This document shows positions 33,970-41,338 of a DNA stretch of 64,000 nucleotides, piece after piece. This stretch comes from an uncultured Lachnospiraceae bacterium (GTDB taxonomy: Bacteria; Bacillota; Clostridia; Oscillospirales; CAG-272), in contig CAYSFT010000002.1 of assembly GCA_964430755.1 (NCBI GenBank), positions 21,001 through 85,000 of the forward strand, read 5' to 3'. Below the pieces are notes generated by a model. It was not told the origin of the DNA and ran no database searches. It saw only the letters and a program-made list of their open reading frames with translations. Made by a program: the position numbers and the translations under genes. Within the stretch, counting starts at the first letter, position 1. The number at the start of each line of letters is the position of its first letter.

Positions 33970-34229
33970 ATGACTATACGGTATTCAAAGGATGCCTTGA
34001 AGTTTTTATCCAAGCTTGAAAAAAATCGGTGACACGTATTCGTGAAGCTATCGGTGGACTTACGCTTGTTCCGCCTGTTGGTGATATTAAGCCGATGCAA
34101 GACTATAACGATGGAACAAAGCGACTCAGAGTTGGTTCATGGAGAATTATTTATCGAATAAATACCGATGGTGGAGTCGATATATTGTTTGTTATCGACA
34201 TAGGAAATCGCGGTGACATATATAAATAA
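33970..34229 (+). pseudogene. RelE/ParE-family toxin gene, frameshifted in an A7 tract
   Basis: ATG 33970 gives MTIRYSKDALKFLSKLEKNR*. The -1 frame from 34029 continues VTRIREAIGGL...KRLRVGSWRIIYRI...VIDIGNRGDIYK. One extra A at 34019-34025 would restore a single ~86-aa ORF. Confidence 0.75.
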
Positions 34230-34242
34230 GGAGGTGCTTTAA

Positions 34243-34455
34243 ATGTCCGGTATTACAATGGAAGCTGCTCGTCTAATGGATGCTCTGCCCGAGGCTGACA
34301 AGAAATTTGCATACGAGTTTATTAAAAAGCTTGTTCTTGCGTGGGATCCTGACTTCACAAAAGTAACCTCAGAAGAAGCGAACTGCATCAAGGAAGCTGA
34401 GGAAAGCGGATTTATCGATGACAGTGAAGTTGATTGGGACAGCATCGGAACATAA
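34243..34455 (+). CDS. small acidic protein, putative cognate antitoxin
   Basis: 70-aa ORF 13 nt downstream of the toxin with a good RBS (aaggaggtg). The function is inferred from position only. Confidence 0.45.
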   Translation: MSGITMEAARLMDALPEADKKFAYEFIKKLVLAWDPDFTKVTSEEANCIKEAEESGFIDDSEVDWDSIGT

Positions 34456-34499: not shown

Positions 34500-34505
34500 T
34501 ATAAC

Positions 34506-34533
34506 AAAAAGCCCCAAGGAAAAACCTCGAGGC
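34506..34533 (-). terminator. terminator downstream of the orphan tRNA 3' half (original tRNA terminator)
   Basis: On the minus strand: gcctcgagg-ttttt-ccttggggc (9 bp including two G-U pairs) followed by ttttt. Confidence 0.6.
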
Positions 34534-34536
34534 TTC

Positions 34537-34585
34537 TGGAGCTGGAAATGGGATTTGAACCCACGACCTATTGATTACGAATCAA
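34537..34585 (-). pseudogene. orphan 3' half of a disrupted host tRNA-Thr(CGU) gene (attachment-site junction)
   Basis: The reverse complement reads ttgattcgtaatcaataggtcgtgggttcaaatcccatttccagctcca: anticodon arm, T arm and acceptor 3' strand plus CCA. No matching 5' half lies adjacent. Confidence 0.85.
34574..34585. repeat. att core direct repeat, left copy
   Basis: attacgaatcaa is the anticodon stem-loop sequence. An identical copy is at 40274-40285, and a third lies inside the intact tRNA at 40205-40216. Confidence 0.8.
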
Positions 34586-34746
34586 CAGGTCTAAATAGCC
34601 CCTTAAATACACCTTTTATTAGTCTTTACAACCTTTTTCTCGGTCGGCATTGACCGAATCGGTAATTGTTGAACGAAAATCTCGCCATTAGGTGCTATTG
34701 ATTACGCTTTTATTGTATCATAAGATTATGAATATTTCAAGAGGGG

Positions 34747-34781
34747 TAAAAAATCAACAGACGGATGTACTCCGTCTGTTG
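34747..34781 (-). terminator. rho-independent terminator of the lipoprotein gene
   Basis: Perfect 10-bp stem caacagacgg / ccgtctgttg, with atttttt on the minus strand. Confidence 0.75.
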
Positions 34782-34789
34782 AAGATGTG

Positions 34790-35344
34790 TCAAAACTCGT
34801 TGTATTTCTCCGCATACTCTTTTATGTTAAGAATAGAAACCTCGTCCCAATCAAGACTTGCTAATGTATCAGCATTAAAGGTGCTTCTTAAATATGCGGT
34901 CTGTACATTTCCATATTCTTCATAGAAAACAAACTTGACTGTCATATTGTAATCGTCTTTCATTCTATACAGTATGGTGTATTGAATTAAAAGAGCATCA
35001 GCAGGGTGAGGTTCTGTCAGTAAAAACTTAACTGTTGAATCATCGGCAGCGACATTTTCGACGTTTGCTTTGCCAACAACACTTTCGGCTAAATCTTGTA
35101 ATGCTTGTCTTTTTTCTGCTACTCCACTAGTACCTGCGGTTATAAAACGCCATTCCGCTTCGGTAAGTCCAAGTTCATTATTGGGGTCATAGGTTTGATT
35201 GTCGGGTTCATAAGTTTGATTATTAGGTTCAACAACGGTGGAGGCTTCGTTTTGTAAATCGTTCTTTTCTTCGCTATTAGAACACCCTACCAAAAAGAAC
35301 ATCAATATAATAGCGCTCAATAAAGAGCAAAGTATTCTTTTCAT
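34790..35344 (-). CDS. lipoprotein of unknown function (element cargo)
   Basis: MKRILCSLLSAIILMFFLVGCSN carries a lipobox. Contains a tandem EPNNQTYEPDNQTYDPNN repeat. Confidence 0.75.
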   Translation of the reverse strand: MKRILCSLLSAIILMFFLVGCSNSEEKNDLQNEASTVVEPNNQTYEPDNQTYDPNNELGLTEAEWRFITAGTSGVAEKRQALQDLAESVVGKANVENVAADDSTVKFLLTEPHPADALLIQYTILYRMKDDYNMTVKFVFYEEYGNVQTAYLRSTFNADTLASLDWDEVSILNIKEYAEKYNEF

Positions 35345-35776
35345 ATCTTTACTTGTACAACTCTCTTTCTATACAACATCCTTGATAAATCAATCAAATA
35401 CACATATAGTATATCATAATTTTATGAACTTTTCAATAGCGATATTGGTTATATTTCGGGAGTAATCGACAGTAAAATATAACAAACAAATCCAAATGGA
35501 AAGAATATAGAAAGGCAGAAAAAAAGATGGTCGGAAAGAAAAACAGAGCGGAAAGGACGGTTTGACAATAAGGTTATAAGGCTTATTTGTCAAACTATAC
35601 TTTCTACCAAAATGAGTATGAAGAAACGGCACGAAGTGTCGCTTCTTCATACGGAAATGGAAAAACGCTCTCATTCGAGCGTTTCACAAAATGGGGTTAT
35701 ACCCTTTGTCCTCGTCCCTATCGGGATAAAAAAGCGGTTATAGTCTTAACTATCAAAAAGCAAAGGGGGTGCGACT

Positions 35777-36691
35777 ATGGGAAGAAAGAGCGGTAATATC
35801 ACTATGCAGTTGAACAAACGCATTGACGATTTACTCCGTATCGGTGAGAAGAAAGTGAAAGATGACCCGACAAATAGCAATCGTGTCGAGGGTATTCACT
35901 CGATACAGACCGCATCAACATACCGAGCGGTAGCAAAACAACTTGGGGAATACCTCAAAGGGCAGGGCGTGAGGAACATTGGGGAGATTGACCGAACACA
36001 CATAGCAGGGTTTATGTCCGAGCGAAAGGACTTGTCTGCTTTTACGCATAGCAAGGATTTGTCGGCTATCAACAAAATCCTTGATACACGCTATACAGTT
36101 CGAGAGTTCGGACTACCTCAACGCAGTTATCACGATGTGTCAAACAACAGAGGTCTTGCGGTAAGAGATACAAGCGGAGCAGAACGCAACCGAGAGGCAC
36201 TTTCTTTTGTTCGTGCCTGCGGTATGCGTAGGGAGAGCATAGACCGAATAACACCGAACGATTTTTTGCGTGATAAAGACGGTCTGTGTATCGGGGTACA
36301 TCTTGTTGAAAAGGGTGGCCGTGAGAGAATGGCGGTAATCATTGAGCAAGACAGAGAGCGTATAACCGAGATTGTCAGTAATGCCATAGCACAAAACGGA
36401 GAGCATCAGCCATTCTTGAAAGCACCCGACTCAAACGCCAATCCTCACTATGAACGCAGGGAGTATGCCGAGAGATTATACACAGACCTTATCAACGCAA
36501 AGGAGAGCGGTTTTGACTACTACGCCAATATGAGAGAGCATTTTATAGACGAGTACAACTTTGAGAGAGCCACACACGGCAGAGCTGAGATAATCAAGGG
36601 GGTTGAGCGTGATACCCTTGCGGAAGTCTCCCAAAATCTCGGACACAATAGAATTAGCGTTGTATATTACAGTTATTTGAACATAGCATAA
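35777..36691 (+). CDS. tyrosine-recombinase-like protein (second recombinase of the element)
   Basis: Candidate catalytic residues in the canonical order: ACGMRRES (R), VEKGGRER (K), NPHYERREYA (HxxR), LGHNRISVVYYSY (H...Y). Assigned by eye only. Confidence 0.55.
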   Translation: MGRKSGNITMQLNKRIDDLLRIGEKKVKDDPTNSNRVEGIHSIQTASTYRAVAKQLGEYLKGQGVRNIGEIDRTHIAGFMSERKDLSAFTHSKDLSAINKILDTRYTVREFGLPQRSYHDVSNNRGLAVRDTSGAERNREALSFVRACGMRRESIDRITPNDFLRDKDGLCIGVHLVEKGGRERMAVIIEQDRERITEIVSNAIAQNGEHQPFLKAPDSNANPHYERREYAERLYTDLINAKESGFDYYANMREHFIDEYNFERATHGRAEIIKGVERDTLAEVSQNLGHNRISVVYYSYLNIA

Positions 36692-36766
36692 TTATATTTT
36701 GCTTGTTATTACATAGAATATAGTAAGCCCGAATGGGTAATACAAGTGGGCGGAAATAAAATGGTG

Positions 36767-36806
36767 AGGCTATCGAAATTACCCTTTCGGTAGCCTTATA
36801 TTTTTG
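36767..36806 (+). terminator. rho-independent terminator
   Basis: Stem aggctatcg / cggtagcct followed by tatattttt. Confidence 0.6.
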
Positions 36807-36856
36807 CTCGAACACCTATCCTCTTTATTTTTCCAAAAAAATATGAATAATGTATA

Positions 36857-36960
36857 TGTAGCAAAGTAGCAAACACTATTTTCTCACATTATTTCAACTA
36901 CTTTAAGGCTACATCGTGGCAGTTATCATTCCTGCCACGATGTAGCACAATGTAGCAAAA
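36857..36960 (+). promoter_or_regulatory. candidate replication/transfer origin: GTAGCA iterons plus a 15-bp inverted repeat
   Basis: tgtagcaaagtagcaaa (36857-36873). Perfect inverted repeat gctacatcgtggcag-N9-ctgccacgatgtagc (36908-36946). atgtagcacaatgtagcaaaa (36940-36960). All lie directly upstream of rep. Confidence 0.5.
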
Positions 36961-36993
36961 CCATAAAAATACTAAAAATAAGGAGGACTCAAT

Positions 36994-38205
36994 ATGAGTA
37001 AAACTCGCACTATGAGAAGTGCTTTTATAAGAATCTCAGCCACAAATAACACAAAGGACGGCTTGGTGGAATACACCAAAGAGCAAATCAAGGCCATGGT
37101 GGAGGGGCTTTGCGACAGATATACAGACACCAAATATGCCTACATTTGCCACGACAAAGACCAAGCACCAGACGGAGCCGTCCCAACACACTTTCATATT
37201 TACTTTAAGTTCAAGACATCTATACACTTTCCCTATCTGAAAGAGGCTTTTCCCTATGGGGACATCGAAAATGCGAGGTCGGCTAATGCTTGTGTTCAAT
37301 ACCTCATACATAAGAACAATCCCGAAAAGGCACAGTATGGCAAAGACGAGGTAATCAGCAATTTTACACAAGAACAACTCGAATACCTTTTCTTGAACAA
37401 CAAGAAATTGGAAAAACTCAACGAAGAATCCGAACTTGCTGACATTTTGGAAGGCATAGCCGAAAACGAAATCAGGCGTTTTAATATGTTTGACCATATC
37501 AGTGTAGAACTTTATAGCAAACACCGAGCGAAGATTGAAAACGCCTTTAAGTACCGAGACATTAAACTGCTGACTAACCCGAACAGAAACATTGATGTCA
37601 TTTTCGTGACGGGAGCAGCAGGCAACGGCAAGACAACCTTTGCCAAATCGTTCGGGAATGGATATAACGGCATTTGCGTTTCCTCGTCATCGAATGACCC
37701 TTTACAAGACTACTGCGACCAAGATGTTCTTATCCTTGATGACTTGCGTGATGAAGATTTCAAGTTTCAAGACCTTTTGAAAATACTTGACCCTCACACC
37801 GCATCAAGTATGAAGAGCCGATACAACAATAAGGTGTTCGTTGGAAAACTCATCGTTATAACGAGTTATAAGACACTTAGAGATTGGTACGGCAAAGTCC
37901 CTCACGATGCTAAAAAGCAGTTATACCGAAGAATGTCACTTTATGTTCAAGTCGAAAAAGAGGAAATCGATATTTACACAATAGATGCTGACTTGACTAA
38001 AACTCTTATTGCCACACTCCCGAACGTAGTGCCTACGCTCATCAAAGAGCACGAAAAGGCAAAAAAGACAGATGAGTTTGTCAATGGGGCAATCAATCAT
38101 TATTTCGACTCAATGAAAAACCTTGTGCCAGAGGAAGAAATCGAAAGAGGGCTGGCTGGTGTCAAGTATGGCTCGGACGGTTATGATAAAGAATTACCAT
38201 TCTAA
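36994..38205 (+). CDS. rep: HUH rolling-circle Rep/relaxase-type initiator (pMV158 RepB-like N-domain) fused to a P-loop NTPase
   Basis: CHDKD...PTHFHIYFKF (HUH motif), VQYLIHKNN (catalytic Tyr motif), and Walker A GAAGNGKTT with LILDDLRD. Confidence 0.8.
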   Translation: MSKTRTMRSAFIRISATNNTKDGLVEYTKEQIKAMVEGLCDRYTDTKYAYICHDKDQAPDGAVPTHFHIYFKFKTSIHFPYLKEAFPYGDIENARSANACVQYLIHKNNPEKAQYGKDEVISNFTQEQLEYLFLNNKKLEKLNEESELADILEGIAENEIRRFNMFDHISVELYSKHRAKIENAFKYRDIKLLTNPNRNIDVIFVTGAAGNGKTTFAKSFGNGYNGICVSSSSNDPLQDYCDQDVLILDDLRDEDFKFQDLLKILDPHTASSMKSRYNNKVFVGKLIVITSYKTLRDWYGKVPHDAKKQLYRRMSLYVQVEKEEIDIYTIDADLTKTLIATLPNVVPTLIKEHEKAKKTDEFVNGAINHYFDSMKNLVPEEEIERGLAGVKYGSDGYDKELPF

Positions 38206-38222
38206 TTAAGGGGGAAAATACG

Positions 38223-38402
38223 ATGAGAAAGAATAAAAATGGCTTTAACAAATATGAATGTATGGTTATCAAGGTAATCTTGACGATTGCCCGACAGATA
38301 ACCGACAACGAGGAAAGAAAGGATTTTATCAGCCGAGTAAGGCTATATGATAAAGAGGGAAACGAAATGCCCTTGTTCCTCAAACAGTTGGAGAGGAATT
38401 GA
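38223..38402 (+). CDS. hypothetical 59-aa protein
   Basis: ATG 7 nt after aaggggg, read by eye (below the ORF-track cut-off). Followed by a terminator. Confidence 0.45.
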   Translation: MRKNKNGFNKYECMVIKVILTIARQITDNEERKDFISRVRLYDKEGNEMPLFLKQLERN

Positions 38403-38404
38403 CT

Positions 38405-38444
38405 AATGGCGTTCTGCTATCACACAGAACGCCATTTTCTTTTA
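38405..38444. terminator. terminator between convergent genes
   Basis: 12-bp stem aatggcgttctg / cagaacgccatt followed by ttttctttt on the plus strand. Confidence 0.7.
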
Positions 38445-38813
38445 CATATTGGGAAAGAGGTGGAAACACTCTAAAACATCGTTCGGGGTCATATCCAAAA
38501 TCAAGGCTAACGCCATAATCTCACTTGCGGTGAAGTCCGACTTGCCCGACATTTTACGGCGGAGCGTCGCATCTGTGATGACACGCCCCAAGAGATTGTT
38601 GAAAATCATAAGTATATCGCTATTGGTTAGACCGAGTTCCTTTTTGCGATTCTCCAAAAAGTCTTTGTCGGCAGCGTTATAAACGCTATCCCGACAAGTT
38701 GCGGATTGAGAATACACAAGGCTTTTGTTTTTCTCTCGGAATTGCTCGGCTGTTTTCGGGGAGCAAAGAGCGTTCAATCGTTCTCTGTTCTCTTGTATCT
38801 TGGTCTTATCCAT
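38442..38813 (-). CDS. HTH-domain protein next to the integrase (possible regulator or excision factor)
   Basis: 123 aa. The C-terminal part is XRE-like (MSGKSDFTASEIMALALILDMTPNDVL). Its start lies 4 nt after the int stop. Confidence 0.6.
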   Translation of the reverse strand: MDKTKIQENRERLNALCSPKTAEQFREKNKSLVYSQSATCRDSVYNAADKDFLENRKKELGLTNSDILMIFNNLLGRVITDATLRRKMSGKSDFTASEIMALALILDMTPNDVLECFHLFPNM

Positions 38814-38816
38814 TGT

Positions 38817-39791
38817 TTATGCTCCTTTTCTTATGTTGCCACGCAGGGGGCGAGGTGTTTGGATTTGGGTTACGAAGTTGAGTTTTTCGGCACTTTCTTG
38901 AAGCATACCCATATCTTCGTTTATATATCGTCTTAACACACGGACATCACTAATCACCATAAGTTTTCTTGTTTTCTCGGTATCTTCAAGAGTGCCGTAT
39001 GTTTTGGTTGCGAATGTTCGTCTAAACTCATGACACGCTCTCGGCTTGACTCCTGCCACATTACAGAGTTCATACATATTTTTTGAAACTGTGTCGGGGT
39101 GTAGCATATTCCCCTCAACATTGGGGAAAAGGTACTCATAGCCTTCCTCTTTCAGCCGTGTCATTTTCAAATATCTTCTCAAAGCGACTTTCAAATCGGA
39201 GTTGAGGGGGATTTGCTGAATCTTGAACACATTGTTTCTCTTGATGTGTCGGAGAATCAAGATGTTTTCCTCAAACCGCACATCTTCAATCAGCATATTG
39301 ACAAGTGTGCCTCGTCTTATGCCAGTGAGCAAAAATGTAATCATCATATAATAGTCCCTTACCTCGCTGAATGTTTTAGAGGTTTTGTATCGGCAATTCA
39401 AGAGTTGCTTTATTTCTTCATCGGAATACACCGTAACCTCGTCTTTAGCAGGGGCTTGAAAGAGTTTGATTTTGAAAGGGACAAGGTTTTCTTCCTCAAA
39501 CAGATAGGAAGTAAAGGCTTTTAATGTCCTCAAATAAGTGTTGCGTGTTTCAACGGCTATCTCCATATCCAAAAGATGAAGTTTGTATTTTTCAACGAGG
39601 TCTTTGTCTATCTCGGAAATATCTGTATAGGCTTTATCGTCACAGAACTTCAAGAAGTCCTTAATTGAGCCTTTGTAGGAACGAATGGTAGCATCTCTGC
39701 GACCCTCGGCAATCTTTGATGTAATAAAACTATCGAAAGCGTTTATAATCGAAACGCCACTTTTTTCTATGTTCTTAATTTTTCTCTTCAT
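38817..39791 (-). CDS. int: tyrosine-type site-specific integrase
   Basis: SAM-like N-domain, then TGIRRGTL (R), CHEFRRTFA (HxxR) and VLRRYIN (Tyr). Sits next to the tRNA attachment site. Confidence 0.9.
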   Translation of the reverse strand: MKRKIKNIEKSGVSIINAFDSFITSKIAEGRRDATIRSYKGSIKDFLKFCDDKAYTDISEIDKDLVEKYKLHLLDMEIAVETRNTYLRTLKAFTSYLFEEENLVPFKIKLFQAPAKDEVTVYSDEEIKQLLNCRYKTSKTFSEVRDYYMMITFLLTGIRRGTLVNMLIEDVRFEENILILRHIKRNNVFKIQQIPLNSDLKVALRRYLKMTRLKEEGYEYLFPNVEGNMLHPDTVSKNMYELCNVAGVKPRACHEFRRTFATKTYGTLEDTEKTRKLMVISDVRVLRRYINEDMGMLQESAEKLNFVTQIQTPRPLRGNIRKGA

Positions 39792-39966
39792 AACAATTTA
39801 ATCTCCTTTATCAAAATATCTATAATCAGCATCACCTCTGCGCAGAGATTATTTTTTTGCTTGTACTCGTATTCTAACATATTTTTTCGCAAAAGTCAAG
39901 AGTGAGCGGTCAAAAATTACCGATTATTTTTGATAGCACAAGATAATTACGGAATTGTGGGCAAAT

Positions 39967-40010
39967 CATATTATACTAAAAACAGAATTGAGTTTATTTA
40001 GTATAATATG
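39967..40010. repeat. 14-bp perfect inverted repeat upstream of int
   Basis: catattatactaaa-N16-tttagtataatatg. Each arm contains a TATAAT hexamer on one strand. Confidence 0.5.
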
Positions 40011-40104
40011 CGTTTTCCCAGCATCAGCAAATTGTTAGAAAAAATACTCGAAAATATTTTTTCTCGTCTTGCTGAAAATCAAAAAATTACAGACCTATTG
40101 ATTA

Positions 40105-40152
40105 CACAAAAAACAAACCCCTTTCCGTGATTGTAAAAACCACGAAAAGAGG
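40105..40152 (-). terminator. rho-independent terminator of the element-borne tRNA
   Basis: On the minus strand: cctcttttcgtg-N11-cacggaaagggg (12 bp with two G-U pairs) followed by tttgttttttg. Confidence 0.65.
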
Positions 40153-40167
40153 CTTGTTATAAGGGTT

Positions 40168-40242
40168 TGGAGCTGGTGGAGGGATTTGAACCCTCGGCCT
40201 ATTGATTACGAATCAATTGCGCTACCCCTGCGCCACACCAGC
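40168..40242 (-). tRNA. tRNA-Thr, anticodon CGU (intact, carried inside the element)
   Basis: Reverse-complement cloverleaf: GCTGGTG-TG-GCGC-AGGGGTA-GCGC-A-ATTGA-TTCGTAA-TCAAT-AGGCC-GAGGG-TTCAAAT-CCCTC-CACCAGC-T-CCA. Confidence 0.92.
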
Positions 40243-40273
40243 ATTGCTATTTAGTTGTAAAACTCGTAATACA

Positions 40274-40285
40274 ATTACGAATCAA
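40274..40285. repeat. att core direct repeat, right copy
   Basis: attacgaatcaa, preceded by its inverted partner tcgtaat-aca (40264-40273). Confidence 0.8.
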
Positions 40286-40311
40286 TTGCGCTACCACTGC
40301 GCCATTCCAGC
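40274..40311 (-). pseudogene. orphan 5' half of the disrupted host tRNA-Thr(CGU) gene
   Basis: Reverse complement gctggaatggcgcagtggtagcgcaattgattcgtaat. The acceptor strand GCTGGAA is exactly complementary to TTCCAGC in the fragment at 34537. Confidence 0.85.
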
Positions 40312-40372
40312 TTATTTTAATTTTACTGTTGCAATTGCGTCAAAAATGTGATACAATATAGACAACACTAAT

Positions 40373-40401
40373 ATTATACCCGATTTGACTTCATTTGTCA
40401 A
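40373..40401 (-). promoter_or_regulatory. consensus sigma-A promoter reading into the tRNA locus
   Basis: On the minus strand: TTGACA-aatgaagtcaaatcggg-TATAAT (17-nt spacer), about 55 nt upstream of the orphan 5' half. Confidence 0.65.
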
Positions 40402-40456
40402 TAGCCGTATACGAAAAAAATAAAGTTTTTCACGGCAGTCGGGGCTTGGAGAATAT

Positions 40457-41338
40457 ATGAGACTTACAGATTTATCGACCATCCGTGAGATTATGTCGCG
40501 TCACGGTGTTTCTTTCCAGAAAAAATTCGGACAAAACTTTCTTATAAATCCGCAGGTGCCTGTTAAGATCGCGGACGCCGCTTGTGTTCGTCCCGATGAT
40601 ATGCCGCTTGGTATACTTGAGATCGGTCCCGGTATCGGTACGCTTACACGTGAGCTTGCCGAGCGTGCTGACAAGGTTATTGCGCTTGAAATTGACACCG
40701 CGCTCATACCGATTCTTGACGAAACGCTTGCCGATTGCCCTAATACATCCGTCATCAATCAGGATGTTATGAAAACCGATCTTGATGCGCTTATTGAGAG
40801 TGAATTTCTCTCGCAGAGTATGCGTGTATCGGTCGCGGCAAATTTGCCTTATTACATCACGACGCCGATACTCATGAAGCTCGTTGAATCGAAGCTCCCG
40901 TTTGAAACGATAACTGTAATGATACAAAAAGAGGTTGCACAGCGTTTGACCGCGCCTGCAGGGGACAGCGAGTACGGTGCGATTACGGCATCCCTTGCAT
41001 ACTACGGCAAAACCGAGCGACTTTTCACAGTGCCGGCAGGTTGCTTTTTGCCTGCGCCAAAAGTGGATTCGGCGGTTATTCGTATAACGCTTCATAAAGA
41101 GCCGCCGGTCAGTGTCATTGACGAAGCGACGTTATTCAAAACGATACGCGGCGCATTTGCACAGAGAAGAAAAACGCTCTCGAACTCGCTTTCCACCGAG
41201 TTTTCGCATCTCGGACGAGAGGGAATTGCCGCGGCGATTGCGGAGACAGGACTTGACGCTTCGATACGCGGTGAGCGTTTGACGCTTGAGGATTTTGCTC
41301 GGCTCGCGGATGCGCTTTATAGGATGGGAAATGATTAA
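40457..41338 (+). CDS. rsmA: 16S rRNA (adenine1518/1519-N6)-dimethyltransferase
   Basis: KKFGQNFL, EIGPGIGTLT and NLPYYITTPI motifs. Confidence 0.95.
   Translation: MRLTDLSTIREIMSRHGVSFQKKFGQNFLINPQVPVKIADAACVRPDDMPLGILEIGPGIGTLTRELAERADKVIALEIDTALIPILDETLADCPNTSVINQDVMKTDLDALIESEFLSQSMRVSVAANLPYYITTPILMKLVESKLPFETITVMIQKEVAQRLTAPAGDSEYGAITASLAYYGKTERLFTVPAGCFLPAPKVDSAVIRITLHKEPPVSVIDEATLFKTIRGAFAQRRKTLSNSLSTEFSHLGREGIAAAIAETGLDASIRGERLTLEDFARLADALYRMGND

Follow-up and report, generated by a model that had tools for sequence, protein, structure and literature searches.

We analyzed a 64-kb window of contig CAYSFT010000002.1 (the window is this whole stretch, and coordinates are positions in it), in which the gene for tRNA-Thr(CGU) upstream of rsmA lies in two pieces separated by 5.7 kb of DNA (34586-40273). 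The intervening DNA encodes an Xer-like tyrosine integrase, a second tyrosine recombinase (rec2), a replication protein (Rep), a helix-turn-helix (HTH) protein, a lipoprotein-like protein and a complete tRNA-Thr(CGU) of its own (Table 1). We consider it very likely that this is an integrative plasmid-like element, inserted by its Xer-like integrase into the anticodon loop of the host gene, and that its own complete tRNA replaces the gene that was split. At the level of sequence, comparison with other genomes establishes the insertion, its exact junctions, the empty sister site, the lack of a rebuilt tRNA, the presence of a complete cognate tRNA and the recurrence of this architecture in a family of elements.

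The split tRNA gene and its empty counterpart

The two host halves overlap solely in the 12-nt sequence TTGATTCGTAAT. Joining them, or excising 34586-40285 in silico, yields a 75-nt tRNA-Thr(cgt) with fully paired acceptor and anticodon stems (ARAGORN). The right junction reads tcgtaat-aca-attacgaatcaa. At attL, the host 5′ half is followed by tgtattacgag, and at attR, gacctg is followed by the host 3′ half. Neither is a tRNA: ARAGORN calls none at attL or attR, and nothing there reaches any threshold on the Rfam tRNA model. The single tRNA that ARAGORN finds in the whole window is the complete one inside the element. Regeneration of the target gene at one junction from a part borne by attP, the hallmark of the classical arrangement, is thus not seen at the window element. 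At 12 nt here and 8 nt in L119 (L-numbers denote comparison loci from other genomes or contigs), the common core is too short for rebuilding a tRNA. The attB overlaps the host tRNA gene, with the junctions in the anticodon loop, and the tyrosine integrase adjoins attL.

The original prediction, made from the letters of this DNA, had claimed two fragments with a 12-nt shared core that join into a tRNA-Thr(CGU), the lack of a regenerated tRNA at both junctions, and a complete tRNA-Thr(CGU) with compensated stem changes 31 nt inside the right end. These claims hold. The coordinates of the fragments match the sequence; the joined halves are called by ARAGORN, and a sister gene that differs by 1 nt scores 74.3 bits in the covariance check; the complete tRNA is recognized by both ARAGORN and Rfam, with pairing kept.

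A degenerate pattern for tRNA-Thr(CGU) returned 114 loci from GTDB species representatives, nearly all from gut Oscillospiraceae or ‘Eubacteriales’ metagenome-assembled genomes. As in the window, rsmA is the neighbor of the tRNA in 54 loci, of which 53 belong to the 114. The closest relatives by RsmA (89-94% identity) are the Flemingiibacterium-like loci L068 (Candidatus Flemingiibacterium sp.), L117 and L100, in all of which the GCTGGAA-type tRNA, whose uninterrupted form had been proposed as a check, is contiguous between the same flanks as in the window. L068 is colinear with both window flanks, such that 34501-34585 continues directly into 40274-41316. Its intact tRNA, the sister gene scored above, differs from the joined window halves by one base in the variable loop, and its 5′ half is identical to the displaced one. 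The possibility that the GCTGGTG-type tRNA is the host's own gene is ruled out by the synteny with L068 and by the travelling of this tRNA with the element.

The left junction is spanned by an independent Logan assembly of SRR14307658, and the layout of the right junction recurs in other, independent genomes; a chimeric assembly, the other check that had been proposed, is therefore excluded. Exact-protein look-ups with the window RsmA, a 70-aa flank protein and the integrase found only this Logan sample, in which no empty site was seen. The Logan unitigs of the same organism (L001-L003) break at 34536-34563 and at ~40195-40282, both within the repeated tRNA sequence, and fragmentation is to be expected of short-read assemblies at tRNA-duplicating elements of this kind.

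Related elements, integration site and gene content

With 36 protein clusters at E<=1e-20, the integrase family is small. The architecture is found again at ten occupied sites, whose integrases have identities as low as 52%. L017, L118 and L119 contain the same element (backbone 93-97% and integrase 99% identical). In these three, the order is host 5′ half, identical 31-nt spacer, identical complete tRNA, terminator and integrase gene (int), and the host halves differ each time. For example, the host tRNA of L119, GCTTGTGTAGCACAGTCGGTAGTGCAGCGCA-TTCGTAAT-GCGCAGGTCGTCCGTTCGAGCCGGATCACAAGCTCCA, matches that of the window at 51 positions (the tRNAs are 75 and 76 nt long). The same layout, each time with its own version of the tRNA, is found in L015 (integrase identity 74%), in L128 and L129 (one element in two hosts, 75%), in L121 (62%), in L132 (54%), and in L123 and L124 (52%). 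Both junctions are visible in L118, L119, L123 and L132, where the host 5′ and 3′ halves of each locus form a matching pair. The backbone of L128/L129 shows only SLH and IS605 TnpB matches, such that no class can be assigned to it.

The L119 host tRNA shares just the 8-nt TTCGTAAT with attP, which places the crossover in the anticodon loop. A crossover within the 7-nt anticodon loop corresponds to the classical ‘anticodon-loop’ sublocation of tyrosine integrases. Here, the identity between attP and attB stops one base past the loop, and thus nothing is rebuilt: because attP shares with attB only the loop and a few neighboring bases, the host gene is left as two dead halves. The integrase probably targets the anticodon loop of tRNA-Thr(CGU), with which it is associated at more than ten loci; its relatives, including the phage-borne ones without rec2 and Rep, always adjoin tRNA-Thr(CGU) sequence. 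We considered rec2 as the integrating enzyme and rejected it, since its homologs in Clostridium minihomine and Brassicibacter are paired with serine recombinases and the phage relatives of the integrase target tRNA-Thr without rec2.

Several motifs surround the crossover. An inverted repeat of 9-12 nt lies 9 nt to the left and 19-20 nt to the right of the loop (left arm, ctaaatagc, 34591-34599). In three lineages, this subterminal repeat changes its sequence and keeps its complementarity and position (GCTATTTAG/CTAAATAGC, GTACCTATTTGG/CCAAATAGGTAC and CTTATTTAG/CTAAATAAG), and it covaries in L123 and L132. The P-arm bases beside the core (GACCTGTTGA) are an inverted image of the tRNA 3′ stem and variable loop (TCAATAGGTC), which renders attR nearly palindromic. 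Both arms of attP contain extra copies of GACCTATTGATTAC, the reverse complement of the 3′ strand of the tRNA anticodon stem plus the variable loop; in L123, the site equivalent to the P′-arm copy changes together with the P-arm sequence. The subterminal repeat, the mirrored P-arm bases and the copies of GACCTATTGATTAC are candidate integrase-binding sites. As a separate observation, the integrase diverges faster than its neighbors: compared to window 37168-40314, L015 has an integrase of 74% identity along with an HTH protein of 98% and a Rep of 94%, and in L128 the integrase is 75% and the HTH protein 93% identical. This suggests either module exchange or diversifying selection on the integrase.

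Near-identical copies divide the element into three parts: a conserved backbone (35448-40273), a likewise conserved 155-bp left end and a swappable cargo slot, whose occupant is a methyltransferase gene in L118 and, in L119, a DUF998 gene. Genes were identified by Pfam, PHROGs and NCBIfam searches. The gene calls of the original prediction (integrase, second recombinase, HUH Rep, HTH protein and lipoprotein) stand; its description of the insert as AT-rich is true only marginally, with a GC content of 0.34-0.47 inside the insert compared to 0.38-0.50 in the flanks.

Table 1. Positions in the window of the split host gene, the element and their parts.
Feature	Position	Strand	Description
Displaced host tRNA-Thr(CGU), 3′ half (anticodon arm to CCA end)	34537-34585	−	TTGATTCGTAATCAATAGGTCGTGGGTTCAAATCCCATTTCCAGCTCCA; attR core 34574-34585
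Left end, P arm of attP	34586-34741		87-94% identical in L119 and L118
Extra copy of GACCTATTGATTAC, P arm	34692-34705
Cargo slot	34742-35447	−	lipoprotein-like gene 34790-35344(−); signal-peptide and lipoprotein-type matches
rec2, second tyrosine recombinase, backbone gene	35777-36691	+	conserved catalytic residues and predicted fold
Perfect 15-nt inverted repeat	36908-36946		GCTACATCGTGGCAG/CTGCCACGATGTAGC; between rec2 and rep, just upstream of rep
Rep, HUH origin-binding/nuclease plus superfamily 3 (SF3) helicase	36994-38205	+	PF01719 9.6e-10; PF00910 6.4e-5
Conserved 59-aa open reading frame	38223-38402	+	41-95% identical in L015, L017, L118, L119, L121, L123 and L132
HTH (Cro/CI-like) protein	38442-38813	−	directly downstream of int; weak HTH_26; PHROG transcriptional repressor 6.9e-6
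Xer-like tyrosine integrase	38817-39791	−	PF00589 7.5e-18; XerA-, XerC- and XerD-type matches all below family cut-off
Extra copy of GACCTATTGATTAC, P′ arm (exact)	40092-40105
Intrinsic-terminator-like hairpin and T-run	40112-40158	−	directly after element tRNA; conserved in L015, L017, L118, L119, L121 and L123
Complete element tRNA-Thr(CGU)	40168-40242	−	acceptor GCTGGTG/CACCAGC; ARAGORN; Rfam 73 bits (gathering score 29)
Spacer between attL core and element tRNA	40243-40273	−	31 nt; inverted-repeat arm gctatttag at 40246-40254
Displaced host tRNA-Thr(CGU), 5′ half	40274-40311	−	GCTGGAATGGCGCAGTGGTAGCGCAATTGATTCGTAAT; attL core 40274-40285
Host tRNA promoter region	40314-40401	−	two sigma-70-like sites upstream of 5′ half, spacer and element tRNA

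Rec2 is the most conserved backbone protein, with 76-96% identity where the integrase has only 52-62%. It has no sequence match in PDB and no BLAST similarity to the element's own integrase. Its residues R151/R152, K179, H224, R227, H290 and Y300 are invariant or nearly so (>=90%) in 33 homologs, and Foldseek matched its AlphaFold model (predicted local distance difference test, pLDDT, 89) to XerH, Cre and IntI (E=5e-5). The rec2 homologs of Clostridium minihomine and Brassicibacter mesophilus (L135 9001-14486; L136 7215-9912) lie beside large serine recombinases, not beside an Xer-like integrase; the backbone thus seems to swap integration modules. Rep has the domain order of HUH-plus-SF3 Rep plasmids (Rep_OBD PF01719, 39 bits with a cut-off of 24.6; SF3 helicase PF00910, 23.8 bits with a cut-off of 21.5), and its nearest plasmid relatives are phytoplasma plasmid Reps (35% identity over 74% of the protein). 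The repeat upstream of rep may be the Rep origin or a nick-site hairpin. Backbone and cargo meet at another inverted repeat, TTTGACAA...TTGTCAAA (35551-35604), half-copies of which occur in L100 and L068. The 59-aa protein, which has no family match in the three databases, is a possible excision or directionality factor. Of the features of an integrative and mobilizable element, the integrase and att sites are present, and the searches recognized no relaxase; our conjecture is that the HUH Rep could double as one.

This gene content bears on the view that the insert is a degenerate prophage or phage satellite, and the case a plain tRNA-dependent lysogeny of a phage. Contigs with phage terminase, portal and tail genes (L120, L127 and L130/L134) do contain integrase relatives of 59-62% identity, the HTH protein matches a phage repressor PHROG, and an element without conjugation genes must borrow some vehicle. 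Nevertheless, we regard this view as unlikely. Among the insert proteins, we found no virion, packaging, lysis or conjugation genes; the capsid, tail, terminase and lysis genes of a temperate phage are all missing by Pfam and PHROGs, and the PHROGs matches are confined to the integrase, the repressor-like HTH protein and a signal peptide. Moreover, the 5.7-6.8-kb unit with exact att bounds is conserved as a whole in at least seven genomes, and Rep is closest to the Reps of small phytoplasma plasmids. The phage database that we compared contains no integrase relative above 26% identity, and no known phage in it carries the tRNA-Thr(CGU) system of this element.

Two kinds of phage-borne arrangement were seen among the integrase relatives. 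The relatives in L130/L134 (7740-7810) and L122 (1-60), which are 59% identical and lie on phage-like contigs (one of them an IMG/VR uncultivated virus genome, UViG), have only a tRNA 3′ half, from the anticodon stem to CCA, upstream of int, i.e., a classical restoring attP. The phage contig L120 (9676-9932; terminase, portal and tail genes; integrase 62% identical) has only a tRNA-Thr(CGU) 5′ half, located 190 nt upstream of int and flanked by two copies of GTAATCAGCAGT. Tentatively, and on the strength of this one contig, the L120 attP may supply the 5′ half of the tRNA.

Proposed expression and compensation by the element tRNA, and its turnover

Of the 75 positions of the element tRNA, nine differ from the joined host tRNA: eight in the acceptor and T stems, both still paired, and one in the D loop. 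It is identical in L017, L118 and L119. All six versions of the element tRNA score 65-74 bits on the Rfam tRNA model. Pairing is kept in 99% of cells across these lineages, with changes on both sides in 10 of the 21 pairs, a result equaled in none of 500 shuffles; slid registers give ~30-55% pairing. This pattern indicates that the element tRNA genes are being kept foldable. In all six lineages, the anticodon of the carried tRNA is that of the destroyed gene. It should be noted that the tRNA carried in L121 (9537-9611) has an altered anticodon loop, ATCGTAA in place of TTCGTAA, and also another anticodon stem; this is the only lineage whose element tRNA no longer matches the integrase core, and the altered loop could protect the tRNA from re-targeting.

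The position of this tRNA relative to the host gene is equally constant. In every lineage, it is co-oriented with, and 27-32 nt behind, the displaced 5′ half and the host promoter. The 69-nt register of 5′ half plus spacer is kept in L017, L118, L119, L015, L123 and L128/L129, and is 68 nt in L132. Of the two promoter sites in the window, the proximal one (TTGACG-18-TAAAAT, 40343->40314) ends 3 nt before the 5′ half, and the distal one (TTGACA-17-TATAAT, 40401->40373), which agrees with the consensus at 12/12 positions, lies 60 nt further upstream. Equivalent promoters can be read from the sequence upstream of the displaced 5′ half in L015, L017, L119, L121 and L123. We scanned the 31-nt spacer for a promoter and found no promoter-like site. 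With the promoter upstream, no promoter in the spacer and the terminator directly after the tRNA, the element tRNA would take the place of the host tRNA in its transcription unit.

The proposed mechanism is as follows. The integrase would recombine attP with attB in the anticodon loop of tRNA-Thr(CGU), upon which the element tRNA would lie 69 nt downstream of the host tRNA start, in the same orientation and behind the host promoter. Most likely, it would then be transcribed from that promoter as a 5′-extended precursor, with the 69-nt leader removed by RNase P. Both this expression from the host promoter and a need of the host for the element tRNA are presumed from the arrangement of the sequences. 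Speculatively, the tRNA could be driven in the excised circle by a promoter-like site of the left end (34740->34712, minus strand), which is directed across the junction in attP.

Carriage of a whole gene would also free the element from a constraint. With a crossover in the anticodon loop, the tRNA that a classical element creates comes from two sources, the host and the element each contributing one half of the acceptor and anticodon stems. According to our calculation, a chimera of host 5′ half and element 3′ half would mispair at 8 of the 10 occupied sites, with up to five mispairs in L121. When the whole gene is carried, no chimeric tRNA must fold, and thus the same element could use any host with tRNA-Thr(CGU). 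The occupation of very different tRNA-Thr(CGU) genes by the same element is consistent with the removal of this constraint.

Several considerations weigh against our interpretation. The element tRNA may not be expressed at all, or its transcription may start elsewhere. If ACG is read by a tRNA-Thr(UGU), the replacement would be of help without being required; only 64 kb of the genome is visible. The element has a second tyrosine recombinase besides the integrase. The integrase has no recognizable arm-binding domain, and the proposed accessory sites are sequence motifs only. Finally, the expected circle junction is GCTATTTAGACCTGTTGATTCGTAATTGTATTACGAG and the expected repaired attB is GACCTATTGATTACGAATCAATTGCGCTACC; a search of Joint Genome Institute (JGI) metagenome contigs and IMG/VR, where such hosts are poorly represented, for the excised circle or further attL sites (pattern TTCGTAATTGTNTTNCGANTTTTACAACTAAATNGCAATGCTGG) gave no matches.

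A different view of the element tRNA is that it is not compensatory: it would serve the element itself, through codon supply or escape from anticodon nucleases, or would be a relic of attP evolution, the host tRNA being dispensable. Many Firmicutes decode ACG without a CGU tRNA, which counts in favor of this view. The spacer faintly resembles the sequence upstream of the host tRNA, as expected from capture by aberrant excision, and phage tRNAs have been proposed as a counter to tRNA-cleaving defenses (discussion of PMC10865867). However, such a tRNA would hardly be expected to have the anticodon of the destroyed gene in all six lineages, with foldability kept by many compensatory changes, and always to be found co-oriented and 27-32 nt behind the displaced 5′ half and the host promoter; a 5.7-kb element with six genes also has little translational demand. 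We consider this explanation improbable, and prefer replacement of the split gene.

The element tRNA can itself become a target. L118 contains two stacked 5′ halves. The first, of the GCTGGTA type, belongs to the host and has its matching 3′ half at attR. Behind it come, in this order, a spacer resembling that of L015, a 5′ half derived from an element tRNA of the L015 type, and the spacer and complete tRNA of the present element. Thus, the tRNA of an earlier element served as attB for a later one. The duplication can also be lost. L133 and L132 have the same host and elements that are 98% identical; L133 lacks exactly one 69-bp unit, and its int is damaged. In L062, the host promoter is followed by a single tRNA and an element remnant. 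Recombination of the displaced 5′ half with the element tRNA leaves a single tRNA that is in part or entirely element-derived; its 3′ part, terminator and 3′ flank stem from the element.

These collapsed loci have a classical look, with a single tRNA between host promoter and element DNA (L133 and L062), and together with the restoring 3′ halves next to int in L130, L134 and L122 they are what could be cited for a classical tRNA-restoring island, in which the complete tRNA is the regenerated target and the halves are older scars or an assembly artifact; we find this barely credible, because the complete tRNA departs from the host sequence in both of its halves, with compensated changes, and so cannot be a host/element chimera, because the tRNA, spacer and terminator travel unchanged into hosts with different tRNA halves, because L068 has, between the same flanks, a single gene made up of the two isolated halves, and because L133 is a secondary collapse.

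Replacement of the host gene by the element tRNA could extend beyond the occupied sites. At the rsmA locus, Flemingiibacterium species have AA, TA, AG and TG variants of the tRNA-Thr(CGU) acceptor stem, and element-like terminators lie behind the tRNA in L084 and L047. This diversity, together with the terminators, is suggestive, without being proof, of element-driven tRNA replacement. Such a terminator directly after a single tRNA-Thr(CGU), or a GCTGGTG-type (element-type) tRNA at the rsmA locus, as observed in L084 (4246-4378), L047 (828-924) and L016, would fit replacement tRNAs of element origin that have become fixed. As a tentative generalization, which may well prove too broad, one integrase family with one crossover would have three solutions: (i) carriage of the tRNA 3′ half by phages (L130/L134/L122); (ii) carriage of an apparent 5′ half by a phage (L120); (iii) carriage of the whole gene, as a promoter-capture cassette, by the elements with Rep. 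The third solution would regenerate the target, leading to stacking (L118) and 69-bp collapse (L133 and L062), with horizontal replacement of the host tRNA-Thr(CGU) as the net result. If true, this would explain the presence of four acceptor-stem versions at the same rsmA locus in close Flemingiibacterium species.

Other changes were noted around the same locus. Directly beside the split tRNA, at 34029-34455, lie an open reading frame (ORF) for a ParE-like toxin (PF05016, 4.9e-6) and a 70-aa partner ORF; neither is found in any related locus, and this flank of the tRNA is therefore variable. Extra tRNA 3′ ends, from the T arm to CCA, were observed downstream of an intact tRNA-Thr(CGU) in L100 (3577-3850), L058 (5600-5881), L004, L037, L028 and L106, alongside pieces that are ~90-97% identical to window 35448-35575 or 34661-34751. 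These copies resemble scars left when other insertions used a T-loop or 3′-end position, and the tRNA-Thr(CGU)/rsmA locus is an integration hot spot.

Comparison with known systems

The original prediction called the arrangement unusual. The split gene and the carriage of a whole tRNA are supported; the word was too strong, given the phage precedents (PMC10865867 and PMC8631192). The integration strategy is already known, and here it is seen in a non-phage element. What is new is the small non-phage carrier in gut Oscillospiraceae, the placement of the tRNA behind the host tRNA promoter, the re-targeting of an element tRNA with stacked scars, and the 69-bp collapse to a single tRNA. An experimentally proven phage strategy is thereby extended to small non-viral elements of gut Clostridia, which suggests that destroying a target tRNA and bringing one's own is a general solution of mobile DNA, beyond actinobacteriophages. 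The whole tRNA is a plausible host-range device, in that no compatible host tRNA sequence is needed, and stacking and collapse show concretely how mobile elements could overwrite ‘conserved’ tRNA genes of their hosts. Island finders that need a regenerated tRNA and a displaced 3′ fragment will miss such elements or set their boundaries wrongly. Together, int, attP and the tRNA would form a compact integration cassette for gut Firmicutes that are hard to engineer.

The closest parallel is ‘tRNA-dependent lysogeny’, shown experimentally for actinobacteriophages (Fionnbharth/K4, cluster L, Gaia and Gordonia CQ2/DL) by Guerrero-Bustamante and Hatfull (mBio 2024, PMC10865867). In these phages, the identity between attP and attB, within a tRNA gene, extends over only 8-17 bp; neither attL nor attR contains a restored tRNA, and viable integrants require the phage-encoded cognate tRNA. 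That study also describes restoring and non-restoring systems among close integrase relatives, cites Lj965 of Lactobacillus johnsonii, and raises freedom from the chimera constraint as an idea for phages. The element has in common with these phages a tyrosine integrase, an attB inside a tRNA gene, a short core, an element-borne cognate tRNA and close relatives that use the restoring mode (here, L130, L134 and L122). The differences are in carrier, tRNA placement and enzyme. Those carriers are temperate phages of Actinobacteria of 40-75 kb, whereas here a 5.7-kb Rep-plus-integrase element resides in gut Oscillospiraceae. The Fionnbharth tRNA is located elsewhere in the genome, overlaps gene 37 and has its own demonstrated promoter, whereas the element tRNA lies 31 nt from the crossover, behind the host promoter. 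The phage integrases are lambda-like with an arm-binding domain, whereas the one studied here is Xer-like. The necessity of the tRNA is proven for the phages and inferred for the element.

A 12-bp core in tRNA-Leu was described by Ford et al. (2021, PMC8631192) for vTRX32-1-like phages of Rhizobium leguminosarum, which also carry a presumed replacement tRNA. The likeness comprises the 12-bp core, the interrupted host gene and the complete tRNA of the same kind, which is thought to replace it. The phage tRNA does not contain the 12-bp motif, which the authors read as protection from super-integration; unlike it, most element tRNAs keep the target loop, one was re-targeted (L118), and only the L121 lineage is altered. 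A Sinorhizobium survey likewise reported host tRNA genes substituted by prophage-borne ones. Classical tRNA/tmRNA-targeting islands and prophages (sublocation classes of Williams 2002; Islander database, PMC4383910) resemble the element in the tyrosine integrase, the crossover in the 7-nt anticodon loop with its symmetric stem, the position of int beside attP and the possible pile-up of islands at one tRNA gene; they restore the target with a 3′ portion borne by attP (PMC4383910), which the element does not. Finally, the phytoplasma HUH-plus-SF3 Rep plasmids share the architecture of Rep_OBD plus SF3 helicase, and they are free, 3-5 kb in size and without integrases, whereas the element is integrated and has two tyrosine recombinases and a tRNA.

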